A stretch of DNA of 6,289 bases from a virus (taxonomy: Duplodnaviria > Heunggongvirae > Uroviricota > Caudoviricetes): the IMG/VR virus record IMGVR_UViG_2548876949_000016; one strand, given 5' to 3'. Shown here piece after piece: positions 973 to 6,289 of the stretch. Under the pieces are notes generated by a model that had not been told where the DNA came from, made no database searches, and was given only the letters and a program-made list of their open reading frames with translations. The number at the start of each line of letters is the position of its first letter. The stretch's first letter is position 1. The translations under genes were made by a program, and so were the position numbers.

Positions 973-1392
973 CTATGATGCGTTTTGTGCTTTCTTTTTA
1001 CGGATTTCTTCGTAGATCATATTGTAATACTGTTTTTTCTCTTCAAGAGTTTTTAATAATTTATCCGCTTCACTTTCTGGCAGTTCGTCTAAGAGATCTA
1101 AAAAAATACGTTGTCGTGGCGTTAGAACCCTTGTTTCATAACTGGAGGCTGTGTTCGTTGATGATGAAACGATACCATCCATCCATCCCCGGGGTAACCC
1201 AAAGGACTCTTCGATAATCTCCACCATATCATCAGCGATCCGTTTTTTTCCCTTTTTCCCCTCTGGGTACAACATTCTTGATACATAAGAAGGCTCGCGC
1301 CCGATCTTTCTGGCCACGTTAACCGCTTTACCATCGCATTTCTCATCACGAATTTTGATGAGTTGCTGTCGTCTAAATTCATATTTGTCCAT
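973..1392 (-). CDS. CI-like prophage repressor (139 aa) with N-terminal helix-turn-helix and no LexA/S24 peptidase domain
   Basis: Divergent from the cro-like gene; N-terminal segment KAVNVARKIGREPSYVSRM looks like a classical HTH; AT-rich codon usage typical of immunity genes; C-terminal half is charged/coiled-coil-like with no Ser-Lys dyad or S24 fold signature; flanked by repeated operator palindromes. Confidence 0.75.
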   Translation of the reverse strand: MDKYEFRRQQLIKIRDEKCDGKAVNVARKIGREPSYVSRMLYPEGKKGKKRIADDMVEIIEESFGLPRGWMDGIVSSSTNTASSYETRVLTPRQRIFLDLLDELPESEADKLLKTLEEKKQYYNMIYEEIRKKKAQNAS

Positions 1393-1492: not shown

Positions 1493-1774
1493 ATGGAAGA
1501 ATTAAGAATATTTCTCAATTCTCTTTCGTCAGATGAACAGCGTATGTTTGCATGCGAGTGTGGTACCAGCATCGGTTATCTAAGAAAGGCATTGAGTAAA
1601 GGTCAAGTGTTAGGGGCATCGTTATGTGTCCTTATTGAGCGAGCCAGTAATGGTGAAGTTACACGTCAGCAACTAAGGCCTTTTGATTGGATGAATATTT
1701 GGCCCGAGCTGGAAGATACCAAAACGTTAACACAACCACTTTCTAGGAGCTTGATTCATGAAAATCAAGCATGA
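1493..1774 (+). CDS. Cro-like HTH regulator of the YdaS family (93 aa)
   Basis: First rightward gene after the operator/promoter region with strong SD AAGGAG; segment SLCVLIERASNGEVTRQQLRPFDW resembles the conserved core I recall for Rac YdaS-type Cro-like proteins; 3' end overlaps the next gene by 17 nt. Confidence 0.7.
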   Translation: MEELRIFLNSLSSDEQRMFACECGTSIGYLRKALSKGQVLGASLCVLIERASNGEVTRQQLRPFDWMNIWPELEDTKTLTQPLSRSLIHENQA

Positions 1775-2183
1775 ACACATCCGCATGGCGATGAATGCCT
1801 GGGCGCGTCCTGATGGCGAAAAAGTTCCAGCAGCTGGAATAACCCAGGCTTATTTTGAGTTGGGTATGACGTTCCCAGAACTGTATGACGACAGCCATCC
1901 GGAAGCCCTGGCTCGCAATACCCAGAAAATTTTCCGCTGGGTAGAGAAAGACACCCCTGATGCTGTTGAAAAAATGCAGGCTCTGTTACCGGCGATCGAA
2001 AAGGCGATGCCGCCTTTGCTGGTGGCCCGTATGCGCAGCCACAGTTCTGAATATTACCGTGAGATCGTCGAACGGAGGGATCGGCTGGTGAAGGATGTCG
2101 ATGATTTTGTTGCGTCAGCGGTTGTTTTGTATGACCAGATGAATCGCGGCGGCCCGGCAGGGAATGCTGTGGTGATGCACTAA
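1758..2183 (+). CDS. YdaT-like protein (141 aa); CII functional analogue / putative toxin-domain protein
   Basis: Position directly after the Cro-like gene as in Rac-type prophages; size (~140 aa); AGGAG SD 8 nt upstream of ATG 1758. Family assignment is from gene order and recalled similarity, not a search. Confidence 0.55.
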   Translation: MKIKHEHIRMAMNAWARPDGEKVPAAGITQAYFELGMTFPELYDDSHPEALARNTQKIFRWVEKDTPDAVEKMQALLPAIEKAMPPLLVARMRSHSSEYYREIVERRDRLVKDVDDFVASAVVLYDQMNRGGPAGNAVVMH

Positions 2184-2205: not shown

Positions 2206-3168
2206 ATGAGCAGCAAGCTTCATGGTCTTGTCTGGGAAGGGTGCGCCTTCACCGGCATGATCTTATCCAGGGTGGCGGTTATGGCCCGTCTTGCAGACTA
2301 CAGCAATGACGAGGGCGTGTCATGGCCTGCCATTGAAACTATCCGGCGTCAGATCGGTGCAAGAAGTGAATCCACAGTGAAATCGGCTATTGCAGAACTG
2401 GCGAAAGAGGGCTGGCTGACGAAGGAAGAGCGTAAGGTCGGTGGGCGTAATGTAAGCAATATCTATCGGCTTAATGTGGAAAAACTCGAAGCAGCTGCGG
2501 CGGCGGCGCGTGAGTCATATAAACCGAAAAGAAAAATTAGCCCGGCAAAAAATGACCCGTTAACAGTTGACCCGTCAAATATTGACCCCTCAACGGTTGA
2601 CCCGTCAAATTTTGATGGATCAACTGTTGATAAAAAACTGCCGATTAGGGGGGCGATGATTGACCCCGATCCGTCAGTATTAAAACCTGATCCGTCAGAT
2701 AAAAGATCTTCTTGTCCGGACGCTTCGCAACCGGACCCGCAGACGGCTGAACAGGATTTTTTAACCCGACACCCTGACGCGGTTGTGTTCAGTGCGAAAA
2801 AACGCCAGTGGGGAAGTCAGGAAGATTTGGTGTGCGCACAGTGGATCTGGGGACGAATCGTGAGTCTTTACGAGCAGGCGGCCAGCTATGATGGCGAGAT
2901 CACTAGACCGAAAGAACCCAACTGGACAGCATGGGCCAATGACGTTCGCACAATGCGGATGCTGGATGGCAGAACTCACAGACAAATTTGTGAAATGTTT
3001 GGGCGTCTCCAGCGGGATTCGTTCTGGGTAAAAAACATCATGAGTCCGGCAAAACTCCGGGAAAAATGGGATGAACTGGTTATCCGCCTGGGGCGTTCGC
3101 CTGCGCAGCGTTGCGTGAATCACATTTCTGAACCGGACACTGAAATACCGCCGGGATTCAGGGGGTGA
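2206..3168 (+). CDS. phage replication initiation protein: N-terminal HTH origin-binding domain, repeat-rich linker, DnaT-like (primosomal protein 1) C-terminal domain
   Basis: ATG 2206 preceded by a GGGGGG SD (2196..2201); the track's GTG at 2191 is an alternative start. N-terminal region has HTH character (SWPAIETIRRQIGARSESTVKSAIAELAKEGWL). C-terminus ends SEPDTEIPPGFRG, matching my recollection of the E. coli DnaT C-terminus (SEPDSQIPPGFRG). Contains the iteron array and is immediately followed by a DnaC homologue. Confidence 0.7.
   Translation: MSSKLHGLVWEGCAFTGMILSRVAVMARLADYSNDEGVSWPAIETIRRQIGARSESTVKSAIAELAKEGWLTKEERKVGGRNVSNIYRLNVEKLEAAAAAARESYKPKRKISPAKNDPLTVDPSNIDPSTVDPSNFDGSTVDKKLPIRGAMIDPDPSVLKPDPSDKRSSCPDASQPDPQTAEQDFLTRHPDAVVFSAKKRQWGSQEDLVCAQWIWGRIVSLYEQAASYDGEITRPKEPNWTAWANDVRTMRMLDGRTHRQICEMFGRLQRDSFWVKNIMSPAKLREKWDELVIRLGRSPAQRCVNHISEPDTEIPPGFRG
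2551..2640. repeat. iteron array (putative prophage origin of replication) embedded in the initiator gene: six 15-bp units, four well conserved
   Basis: Units at 2551, 2566, 2581, 2596, 2611, 2626: aatgacccgttaaca / gttgacccgtcaaat / attgacccctcaacg / gttgacccgtcaaat / tttgatggatcaact / gttgataaaaaactg; units 2 and 4 are identical. A further ATTGACCCC copy at 2659..2667. Followed by AT-rich stretches and four GATC sites (2618, 2668, 2689, 2705). Confidence 0.55.
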
Positions 3169-3174
3169 CGTGTC

Positions 3175-3921
3175 ATGAAAAACATTGCGGCAGTTGGGGT
3201 TCTTGAACGTATTCGCAGACTTGCACCACAGGGGTCGGTTCCACCGTACCGGACGGTGGAGGAGTGGCGGGAATGGCAACTTGCTGAAGGACGAAAACGC
3301 AGCGAGGAGATTAACCGCCAGAATCGCCAGTTGCGGGTGGAAAAAATCCTGAATCGTTCGGGCATCCAGCCTCTGCACAGCAAATGCTCGTTTGCAAATT
3401 ATCAGGTGCAGAACGACGGGCAAAAATACGCGCTGAGCCAGGCCAAATCCATAGCTGACGAACTGATGACCGGGTGCACGAATTTTGTGTTCAGTGGTAA
3501 AACCGGCACCGGGAAAAATCACCTTGCAGCGGCGATGGGCAACCGGCTGATGGTGAAGGGGCGCAGCGTGATTATCGTCACCGTGTCTGACGTCATGAGC
3601 GTGTTGCATGACAGCTACGACAACGGCAAATCCGGGGAAAAATTTTTACAGGAGCTTTGCGGGGTTGATTTGCTGGTCCTGGATGAAATAGGCGTTCAGC
3701 GGGAGACGAAAAACGAGCAGGTGGTATTGCACCAGATAATTGATCGCCGGACAGCATCACTGTGCAGTGTCGGGATGTTAACAAACCTGAATCATGCCGC
3801 AATGAGTACGCTTCTTGGTGAGAGGATTATGGACCGCATGACCATGAACGGTGGTCGATGGGTGACGTTTAACTGGGATAGCTGGCGTCCAAATGTCAGC
3901 AATATGAGGGTTGTGAAGTAA
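3175..3921 (+). CDS. DnaC-like replicative helicase loader (AAA+ ATPase, 248 aa)
   Basis: Walker A FSGKTGTGKNHLAAA and Walker B LLVLDEIGVQ, plus overall collinearity with E. coli DnaC as I recall it (N-terminal MKN..., RSGIQPLH, MLTN, LLGERIMDRM, FNWDSWR). Start is 7 nt after the initiator stop, with a purine-rich SD. Confidence 0.85.
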   Translation: MKNIAAVGVLERIRRLAPQGSVPPYRTVEEWREWQLAEGRKRSEEINRQNRQLRVEKILNRSGIQPLHSKCSFANYQVQNDGQKYALSQAKSIADELMTGCTNFVFSGKTGTGKNHLAAAMGNRLMVKGRSVIIVTVSDVMSVLHDSYDNGKSGEKFLQELCGVDLLVLDEIGVQRETKNEQVVLHQIIDRRTASLCSVGMLTNLNHAAMSTLLGERIMDRMTMNGGRWVTFNWDSWRPNVSNMRVVK

Positions 3922-5307: not shown

Positions 5308-5994
5308 ATGACCCCAATAAAAATATTTATGACTATTGCTGATTTCAAACGGCCTAAATTGGAGCTCCCAAACGGGGCAAACAAACTACTACTGCACTCT
5401 TGCTGTGCTCCATGTTCCGGTGAAGTGATGGAGGCGCTTCAGGCCTCGGGAATCGACTACACCATCTTTTTCTACAACCCGAACATTCATCCTCAGAAAG
5501 AGTATTTAATTCGTAAGGATGAAAATATTCGCTTTGCTGAACAACACGGCGTGCCGTTTATCGATGCTGATTACGACACCGACAACTGGTTTGAACGTGC
5601 CAAAGGAATGGAATGGGAGCCTGAGAGGGGGATCCGTTGTACCATGTGTTTTGACATGCGTTTTGAGCGGACAGCGTTGTACGCTGCTGAAAATGGTTTC
5701 AGTGTGATCAGCAGTTCACTGGGCATTTCACGCTGGAAAAATATGCAGCAGGTTAACGAGTGTGGGCGGCGAGCTGTTGCGCATTATCCGGGTATGGTGT
5801 ACTGGGATTATAACTGGCGCAAGCAGGGCGGCTCGTCCCGTATGATTGAAATCAGCAAGCGCGAAAAATTCTATCAGCAGGAATATTGTGGCTGTGTGTA
5901 TTCTCTGCGCGATACCAATCTACACCGCAAATCTCAGGGACGCCCTCTTATCAAAATTGGCCAACTCCACTACGGAAAAGAAGAGAAGGAGTGA
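5308..5994 (+). CDS. queH: QueH-like epoxyqueuosine reductase (DUF208 family, 228 aa), prophage cargo
   Basis: Three cysteine motifs that I recall as the QueH/DUF208 signature: [11 protein letters not shown] (nt ~5389..5421), [10 protein letters not shown] (~5638..5667) and EYCGCVYS (~5881..5904). Separated from the upstream gene by a 153-bp gap containing TTGACA at 5182..5187. No convincing Shine-Dalgarno before ATG 5308 or the alternative ATG 5329, so the start is uncertain. Confidence 0.6.
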
Positions 5995-6289
5995 TTTTAT
6001 GGATCACCTTTCTGATTGATTTCATATTGGCGAGGTGACGTGAGTTAAGTAGAATGGCTGCGGGTGCTTGAGGCTATCTGTCTCAGGCATGAACACTGAA
6101 AGGCAGATAGAGAAAAGCCCCAGTTAACATTTCGCGTCCTGCAAGACGCTTAACATTAATCTGAGGCCCAATCTATGTCTCACAAATGTAGGTTAGCCTC
6201 TTACGTGCCGAAAGGCAAGGGGAAGCAGGCTATTGTTAACACCAAGCTGTAATGTCCCCTTTGAACCATTCTAAAATGTCCCCAGACAA

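Follow-up and report, generated by a model that had tools for sequence, protein, structure and literature searches.

The replication origin of bacteriophage lambda maps within gene O, where inverted repeats that bind O dimers precede an A+T-rich region of 40 bp (PMC5043065). That a lambdoid phage carries its origin within the gene for its initiator is textbook knowledge. In Shiga toxin (Stx) phages, phi80 and phage 82, as in lambda, the origin lies within the initiator gene, between the sequences encoding a DNA-binding N-terminal domain (N-domain) and a C-terminal domain (C-domain). Here we examined a 6,289-bp stretch of phage DNA (the window; IMG/VR record IMGVR_UViG_2548876949_000016), in which a gene encoding an initiator protein carries tandem repeats and clustered GATC sites at the same place. 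We consider it likely that positions 2530-2740, which code for the linker of this initiator, are the vegetative replication origin of a prophage and act by the mechanism proposed below, including a step that depends on Dam methylation. To the origin part alone we assign a higher probability than to this statement as a whole, and to the Dam part a lower one. By comparison of sequences, the locus is very probably a lambda-type in-gene origin of an uncharacterized initiator family, with a conserved and probably Dam-sensitive element. It departs from the textbook case in its HTH_36 N-domain, the five-codon period of its dyads, a DnaC-like loader combined with a DnaT-like tail of the initiator, and GATC sites fixed at silent positions. 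What the data support directly is the anatomy of the stretch, its homologies, and purifying selection at the DNA level on the dyads and GATC sites.

The initiator matches the profile phrog_391 ("replication initiation O-like") over its full length (E 2e-115). BLASTP aligned residues 182-300 of its C-domain with lambda O residues 171-277 (39% identity, E 5e-26), and the four iterons annotated inside O in the lambda record lie just before this homologous part. In a tblastn search the initiator matched lambda and phi80, gp15 of phi80 aligning to the C-domain part. BLASTP showed no similarity between the N-terminal part and lambda O, so that homology to the lambda O N-domain was not found. An AlphaFold model built from 36 homologues folds residues 1-105 confidently as a winged helix (predicted local distance difference test, pLDDT, 80-92), which Foldseek grouped, with weak E-values of ~3e-3, with dimeric DNA binders of the MarR/ArsR/PadR type. 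On the domain map from this model, the DNA that encodes the disordered linker contains the repeats and the GATC sites as well as a conserved junction to their right (Table 1).

Several further features are shared with the origins of the lambda type: multiple dyad-symmetric putative initiator sites, a candidate easily melted A/T-rich stretch on the C-terminal side of these followed by a short inverted repeat, a position in the operon after cro- and cII-like genes, the homologous C-domain, and mosaic junctions within the origin. There are also differences. The N-domain is of another family than that of lambda O, and the 12-bp dyads recur with a strict 15-bp period, whereas the lambda sites are 18-19 bp long and ~20-24 bp apart. 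The loader is DnaC-like instead of lambda P, and a DnaT-like tail closes the initiator. Finally, ori-lambda has no GATC, whereas two or three are fixed here, and the A/T-rich element is weaker than that of lambda. A lambda-like arrangement with the origin inside the initiator gene, as proposed in a preliminary description of this DNA, is thus supported by the homology of the C-domain, the position in the linker and the selection at the DNA level described below; the likeness to lambda O itself extends to the C-domain but not to the N-domain.

Table 1. Positions in the window, and residues of the initiator, of the features discussed in the text (aa, amino acids)
Feature	Position	Strand	Basis or remark
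Repressor-like gene	973-1392	-	Pfam/PHROG
YdaS/cro-like gene	1493-1774	+	Pfam/PHROG
YdaT/cII-like gene	1758-2183	+	Pfam/PHROG
Initiator gene, 320 aa	2206-3168	+	RefSeq coding sequence in identical record; HTH_36; PHROG 391
Winged-helix N-domain, HTH_36	aa 1-105		PF13730, 27.9 bits against a cut-off of 25; AlphaFold
A-tract-rich left flank of iteron array, 67% A+T	2521-2553		Composition; fourth least stable 40-mer of the gene
Disordered linker	aa 109-177 = 2530-2736		AlphaFold, pLDDT <50
Iteron array, six 15-bp units	2551-2640		Repeat searches, pattern count
Fourth GATC	2618-2621		Within iteron unit 5; not conserved in relatives
Solitary iteron-like unit, ATGATTGACCCCGAT	2656-2670		Its half TTGACCCC adjoins the first conserved GATC
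GATC module, candidate DNA-unwinding element	2668-2708		GATC at 2668, 2689 and 2705; A/T-rich spacers
Conserved right-hand junction, TTCTTGTCCGGACGCTTCGCAACCGGAC	2709-2743		Also a mosaic-module boundary
Lambda-O-like C-domain	aa 178-297		AlphaFold, folded helical domain; BLASTP
DnaT-like tail	aa 298-320		Disordered in AlphaFold model
DnaC-like helicase-loader gene, presumed partner of initiator	3175-3921	+	Pfam IstB_IS21; PHROG 50

Tandem Repeats Finder detected, in 2541-2630, periods of 15 bp (5 copies) and 30 bp (2.5-3 copies, 80-84% matches). Within each well-preserved unit lies a 12-bp dyad, TTGA-N4-TCAA (TTGANNNNTCAA), which has four exact matches in the window against ~0.1 expected for its eight fixed bases. 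These lie at 2567-2578, 2582-2593, 2597-2608 and 2612-2623, in exact steps of 15 bp. Units 2566-2580 and 2596-2610 are identical (GTTGACCCGTCAAAT), and of the outer units 2551-2565 is degenerate and 2626-2640 is reduced to a half-site. Read in frame, the six units encode NDPLT VDPSN IDPST VDPSN FDGST VDKKL. In the fifth (TTGATGGATCAA), which includes the GATC at 2618, the dyad is preserved by paired changes. Farther right, the part ATTGACCCC of the solitary unit repeats positions 2581-2589, and relatives show GGGGTCAAtgGTTGACCCCGATCC at the same position. The A-tract-rich flank to the left of the array has a putative role. The preliminary description had placed tandem 15-bp units, two of them identical, inside the initiator open reading frame; the units, their frame and their 15-bp period hold, whereas the 15-bp consensus given for the iteron is to be replaced by the 12-bp dyad. 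As a side observation, the dyad units make 2562-2628 an imperfect inverted repeat with arms of 33 nt, which as single-stranded DNA folds much better than shuffled sequences (z = -4.0); extrusion of a cruciform or hairpin upon unwinding is possible.

To separate what the DNA conserves from what the peptide conserves, we compared relatives comprising one genome per species (L003-L012), phage records (L014-L016, L106-L108), contigs encoding selected database proteins (L097-L105) and viral contigs (L109-L188). In all these relatives examined, a repeat array with a 15-bp period directly follows the N-domain. Across 94 units from 20 relatives, information content peaks at unit positions 3-5 (TGA) and 10-12 (TCA), at 1.4-1.75 bits. 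The two peaks are reverse complementary, and the centre of the unit carries only 0.2-0.8 bits. Although positions 3 and 12 fall on codon wobble sites, their conservation equals that of first and second positions. The same 94 units encode 67 distinct pentapeptides, with DP, EG, DA, DG, NP, EA, GG, ER and others as central residues. One strand of the dyad (TTGACCCCTCAA) encodes (I/V)DP(S/P) and its reverse complement (TTGAGGGGTCAA) encodes (I/V)EG(S/L), and relatives combine both orientations, for example IDPPT VEGLT VDPPN in L006. All iteron classes are variants of T(C/T)TGA-N4-TCA(A/G)A; co-variation between N-domain and iteron specificity gave no clear test. In 44 representatives, the step from one strict dyad to the next is a multiple of 15 in 79 of 92 cases. 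These comparisons indicate that selection is acting on the dyad DNA, not on the peptide. A conserved DNA site that leaves the peptide free is expected of an initiator-binding site and not of a functional peptide repeat.

It is very improbable, in our view, that the repeats are a low-complexity coding linker generated by slippage, or binding sites for autoregulation or incompatibility, and not an initiation site. Such an origin or use would suit the freely variable copy number, from ~1 to >8 units among relatives, with P0103 and P0106 almost devoid of units, and also the predicted disorder of the linker; iterons of plasmids serve in negative control as well. It does not explain why the half-sites are conserved at wobble positions to the same degree as at first and second positions, in contrast to an unconserved peptide. 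The dyad symmetry also suits a dimeric winged-helix binder, the position and the neighbouring genes match those of ori-lambda, and repeat and composition scans of the replication region revealed no other repeat array or A/T-rich candidate. Near-identical E. coli copies (L017-L096; P0002-P0024) have lost or gained whole 15-bp units in frame, giving proteins of 303-329 aa, and in some, units or GATC codons are altered by point changes, IAPST, PEPSD and PDLSD being examples; this variation may reflect decay of cryptic prophages or tuning of the origin.

Four GATC sites lie within 91 bp (2618, inside the array, and 2668, 2689 and 2705 to its right), and the direct repeat GATCCGTCAG occupies 2668-2677 and 2689-2698, 21 bp apart, both as described earlier. 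The A/T-rich stretches noted after the repeats are also present, but modest at 65-70% A+T (2608-2647 and 2676-2706). The segment 2674-2713 is the least stable 40-mer of the gene, though at ~65% A+T and with a stability z of only ~2. Clustering of GATC had been taken as a hint of control by Dam and SeqA. Judged from the window alone, it is marginal and not significant: the window contains 22 GATC against 22.1 expected, and the scan statistic for at least four in any 91 bp gives p ~0.055. Support for the cluster comes from its conservation in relatives. When 19 diverged loci were aligned, the first and second GATCC showed little or no variation, while the spacers vary in length and sequence. Among 22 loci, GATC occurs once per 19 bp in a 50-bp module compared with once per 265 bp elsewhere, a ~14-fold difference; with the anchoring site subtracted, the density in the module is still ~1 per 30 bp. 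The module is the densest or co-densest 50-bp window for GATC in 20 of these 22 loci, and two or three clustered sites are present in 40 of the 44 representatives.

Codon usage in the linker supports the same view. Codon columns were set by protein alignment, not by GATC, in 44 representatives with <85% protein identity. Asp 155 is encoded by GAT in 44/44 relatives and Asp 162 in 40/40, whereas the control columns Asp 31 (GAT 24, GAC 20) and Asp 35 (GAT 32, GAC 11) are mixed. Likewise, TCA encodes Ser 129, 134, 157 and 164 in 37/37, 39/39, 36/36 and 39/39 cases, compared with 6/42 and 4/40 in control Ser columns. In this set of 44 relatives, each of 44 conserved N-domain columns shows more than one codon. 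In the 19 loci, the mean frequency of the major codon is 0.53 in the N-domain and 0.58 in the C-domain, but 0.91 in residues 150-180. Silent sites are near saturation (median wobble identity 0.46), and fixed positions therefore reflect selection and not a lack of time. Relatives preserve the third GATC by way of different codons, as AGA|TCT (Arg-Ser), AAG|ATC (Lys-Ile) or GAT|CTx (Asp-Leu). Together these comparisons argue that the putative origin is enriched in GATC and that the sites are conserved more strictly than the coding sequence requires. A dual constraint, coding and cis-acting, as the preliminary description had suggested, is borne out by the wobble-conserved half-sites and the fixed GAT codons, and the Dam/SeqA suggestion, marginal in the window, is substantially strengthened by the fixed silent GAT codons together with a third GATC in another frame; the Neisseria relative described below can also be cited for it. 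The locus would be an exceptionally clear case of overlapping codes, in which the same ~200 bp encode a disordered linker and act in cis as an origin, with silent positions revealing the dominant constraint. One candidate sign of initiator binding, co-variation between GATC units and iteron class, was rejected: L106 pairs class-B iterons (TCTGACCCGTCAGAT) with GATCCACAAG units.

An alternative that accepts the origin holds that the GATC sites are incidental to a conserved linker peptide motif (DPDPS..DPSDK), a short linear motif that might contact a host or phage replication protein, and that Dam and SeqA are uninvolved. Asp155-Pro156 and Pro163 are indeed invariant as amino acids, and Ser157, Asp162 and Ser164 are nearly so. 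Asp-Pro yields GATC whenever Asp is GAT, which is the case in only two of the eight Asp-Pro dipeptides of the linker, and the spacing of the GATC sites is not conserved in phase. A peptide motif cannot, however, fix silent positions, neither the GAT codons, which are uniform next to mixed control columns, nor the TCA codons. In L010-L012 and L106, the peptide is changed to DPQV..DL and GATC is retained, and the third GATC is found in different reading frames. Rac ydaU, with another N-domain and another peptide, nevertheless carries two GATC sites within A-rich DNA at the equivalent position, and the corresponding Neisseria units retain CCGTCAG but not GATC. Weighing these points, we consider it unlikely that the motif accounts for the GATC sites.

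Conservation does not stop at the last GATC. In the junction, CCGGAC occurs at 2716-2721 and 2731-2736, the latter forming an inverted pair with GTCCGG at 2714-2719. Columns with a single codon include TGT (15/15), GAC (18/18) and GCT (15/16), and in the 44-relative set GAC is found in 36/37. The extent of 2551-2708 proposed earlier for the origin is for this reason too short on the right, where the conserved cis element runs to ~2740. The junction is also a boundary between mosaic modules. Phage mEp460 shares only the sequence from the junction rightwards, having the same C-domain but a different N-domain and other repeats, and lacking the GATC triplet. In L008/L009 and L011/L012, an N-domain and repeats of the same kind are followed by other C-domains.

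Such mosaicism raises the question of whether silent conservation in 2660-2740 marks a homologous "linker" for modular recombination among lambdoid phages in place of a cis-acting replication element. DNA homology with other phages begins exactly at window position 2668 or 2701; the same N-domain and repeats occur with at least three different C-domains, and this C-domain is also found behind another N-domain; and the lambda record marks recombination points in the A/T-rich region of its ori. Against this, indels and substitutions have accumulated between the GATC sites (spacings of 12-24 bp) while GATC and TCA are fixed, a pattern of site-specific selection and not of recent block transfer. 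Recombination at a conserved functional site is also expected of an origin, and the two readings are not exclusive. That recombination alone explains the conservation seems to us a slim chance.

GATC sites in origins have precedents in oriC, P1, ColV-K30 and Vibrio cholerae oriII (PMC2865523). As in oriC, P1 oriR, ColV-K30 and oriII, GATC is clustered here in or beside the part of the putative origin predicted to be unwound or bound by the initiator, in a Dam+ host. The initiator of oriII, RctB, binds only fully methylated GATC-containing sites (PMC2865523); GATC lies inside the initiator sites there and inside the iteron-like GATCCGTCAG units here. The locus differs from these origins in having only two or three sites, placed within phage protein-coding sequence.

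Two more distant loci were compared. In Neisseria gonorrhoeae, a relative (L190, 2128-2365; N-domain 28.5% identical) has five 15-bp repeats (GAACCGTCGGATTAC) encoding EPSDY, then 22-bp repeats, then three 12-bp units (GTAGAACCGTCA). Here GAACCGTCAG occurs three times where the enterobacterial relatives have GATCCGTCAG, GAA replacing GAT in this single lineage. PMC4269198 describes gonococci as lacking Dam activity and as having a GmeATC-specific endonuclease instead. The Neisseria pattern, judged from sequence, would fit a Dam-related reason for the GATC sites. The L190 record is labelled a plasmid of 2.17 Mb and is evidently a chromosome.

The second locus is ydaU-ydaV of the Rac prophage of E. 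coli K-12, in which YdaV corresponds to the loader, YdaS/YdaT-like genes lie upstream, and YdaU ends in the same IPPGFRG tail. The linker DNA of ydaU (L002, 2972-3063) has repeats of its own, four AACAGATGTTCAA-like copies, followed by an A-rich stretch and two GATC 12 bp apart (GATAAAGATCTAAAAACAGATCC; L002, 3118/3130). The N-domain of YdaU is DUF1376, and its repeats are unrelated in sequence to those described here. An active origin of Rac, oriJ, has been reported (PMC3945230). Our literature search did not yield its mapped position; by analogy, the repeat/GATC stretch of ydaU is a candidate for it.

From these features we infer binding, melting, helicase loading and methylation dependence in the following order. 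After induction, the operon would be transcribed from the promoter region adjoining the repressor gene. Dimers of the N-terminal winged helix would then bind TTGA-N4-TCAA, four to six of them in the array and one more at 2659-2670, and the resulting nucleoprotein complex would melt the A/T-rich segment beside them, 2668-2713, where stability is lowest. Recruitment of the DnaC-like loader and host DnaB would fall to the lambda-O-like C-domain together with the DnaT-like tail. Through the two or three GATC sites of the melted segment, use of the origin would become Dam-dependent: either opening or binding to the iteron-like GATCCGTCAG units would require full methylation, or, alternatively or additionally, SeqA would sequester the hemimethylated sites after each firing. 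If the GATC sites are functional in this way, replication of an induced prophage would be gated by Dam methylation, whether by host or phage enzyme, which bears on the control of induction and on recombination of lambdoid replication modules.

A more specific version treats the GATCCGTCAG units as iteron variants that sense methylation from the edge of the unwinding element and Dam-gate the origin: it would open only when both strands are methylated, or be blocked by SeqA when hemimethylated. We regard this version as doubtful. If true, it would describe an enterobacterial prophage family with a Dam-gated origin written in silent codon positions, and Dam-type methylases carried by relatives could re-arm the origin quickly in lytic growth. 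Genes for Dam-type or other adenine methyltransferases are found one or two genes from the initiator in 7 of ~20 diverse relatives (L014, L098, L100, L101, L102, L104 and L107). In 36 kb of the prophage that contains this window, no methyltransferase gene was found.

Several points count against the proposal of a Dam-sensitive origin at 2530-2740. Besides the marginal clustering within the window and an A/T-rich element weaker than that of lambda, the GATC spacings of 12, 16, 18, 21 and 24 bp show no fixed helical phasing, and the second or third GATC is lost in L103, L105, L109 and L119. The iteron units of relatives were delimited by eye. The loci share ancestry and their counts are not independent trials, a concern tempered by the near-saturated control columns. 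The Neisseria pattern is that of one lineage only, and sequestration would be odd for a lytic replicon. A literature search, in which older papers on lambdoid phages were unsearchable, returned no paper on the origin of this family or on GATC clustering in a lambdoid origin, and we found in the literature no experimental support at the family level for replication, binding or methylation.

Other candidate elements of replication control were examined in the same DNA. The bottom-strand sequence GATCTTTTATCTG (2696-2708) resembles the oriC 13-mer GATCTnTTnTTTT and was rejected, as 4 matches with at most two mismatches were found against 2.6 expected, which is at chance level. DnaA boxes are not enriched (9 relaxed matches compared with 12.9 expected); one exact relaxed box lies at 2475-2483. 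No promoter or terminator was found inside the initiator gene. A circular "plasmid" of 15,977 bp (NZ_CP148542.1; L189) was too unreliable to serve as proof of autonomous replication, with homopolymer frameshifts in its initiator and ydaT-like genes. It consists only of repressor, cro, replication, nin-like, Q and lysis genes of this type of prophage, similar to lambda-dv, and could be a real mini-replicon or an assembly artefact.

The product of the loader gene matches NCBIfam PRK12377 and DnaC (E 2e-89) and shares 80% identity with Rac YdaV. The initiator ends in 21 residues (..VNHISEPDTEIPPGFRG; 3103-3165) that match the C-terminal tail of DnaT, or primosomal protein I, of E. coli (VNTVSEPDSQIPPGFRG in Protein Data Bank entries 2ru8, 6aep and 9zbt), and in a sequence search of solved structures this tail was the sole matching part of the initiator. 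A DnaT-like ending is also present in Rac YdaU, L011/L012 and L014, and in relatives in which a lambda-P-type gene adjoins, the initiator ends as in lambda O (W..D/E..L). Based on this distribution, the tail may be a handle for DnaC-type loaders.

The initiator family is common, with 914 related protein clusters and relatives in Salmonella, Klebsiella, Erwinia, Edwardsiella, Morganella and Pantoea. In E. coli strain F2_407_2_2, a prophage next to potC matches the whole window at 100% identity, and at least 80% of the window was found in 485 of 5,426 complete E. coli genomes, including many of O157:H7. The left part of the matching prophage comprises integrase, excisionase, exonuclease and kil, and then the repressor, cro-like and YdaT-like (cII-like) genes. 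Next are genes annotated as "helix-turn-helix domain protein" (the initiator) and "ATP-binding protein" (DnaC-like), followed by DUF1627, DUF977, QueH and hokD, and the right part has a Q-like antiterminator, lysis genes, terminase and portal. This gene order, annotated in an identical prophage, identifies the window as the early-right operon, with immunity and replication genes, of a lambdoid prophage of E. coli.

Four copies of ATACCCAYRGGT lie at 893-931 and 1429-1464, two downstream of the repressor gene and two between the repressor and cro-like genes; counting both strands, there are 6 matches against 0.04 expected. These copies are likely the left and right operators. At the other end of the window, the only known RNA family detected is sok antitoxin RNA, with a full-length match at 6062-6234 (Rfam RF01794, 115.6 bits), and the hokD toxin gene begins at the window end according to the identical genome record. 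Between the replication genes and hok/sok lies a prophage-borne gene for epoxyqueuosine reductase QueH (5308-5994; Pfam E 1e-65), which looks like a moron affecting tRNA modification.

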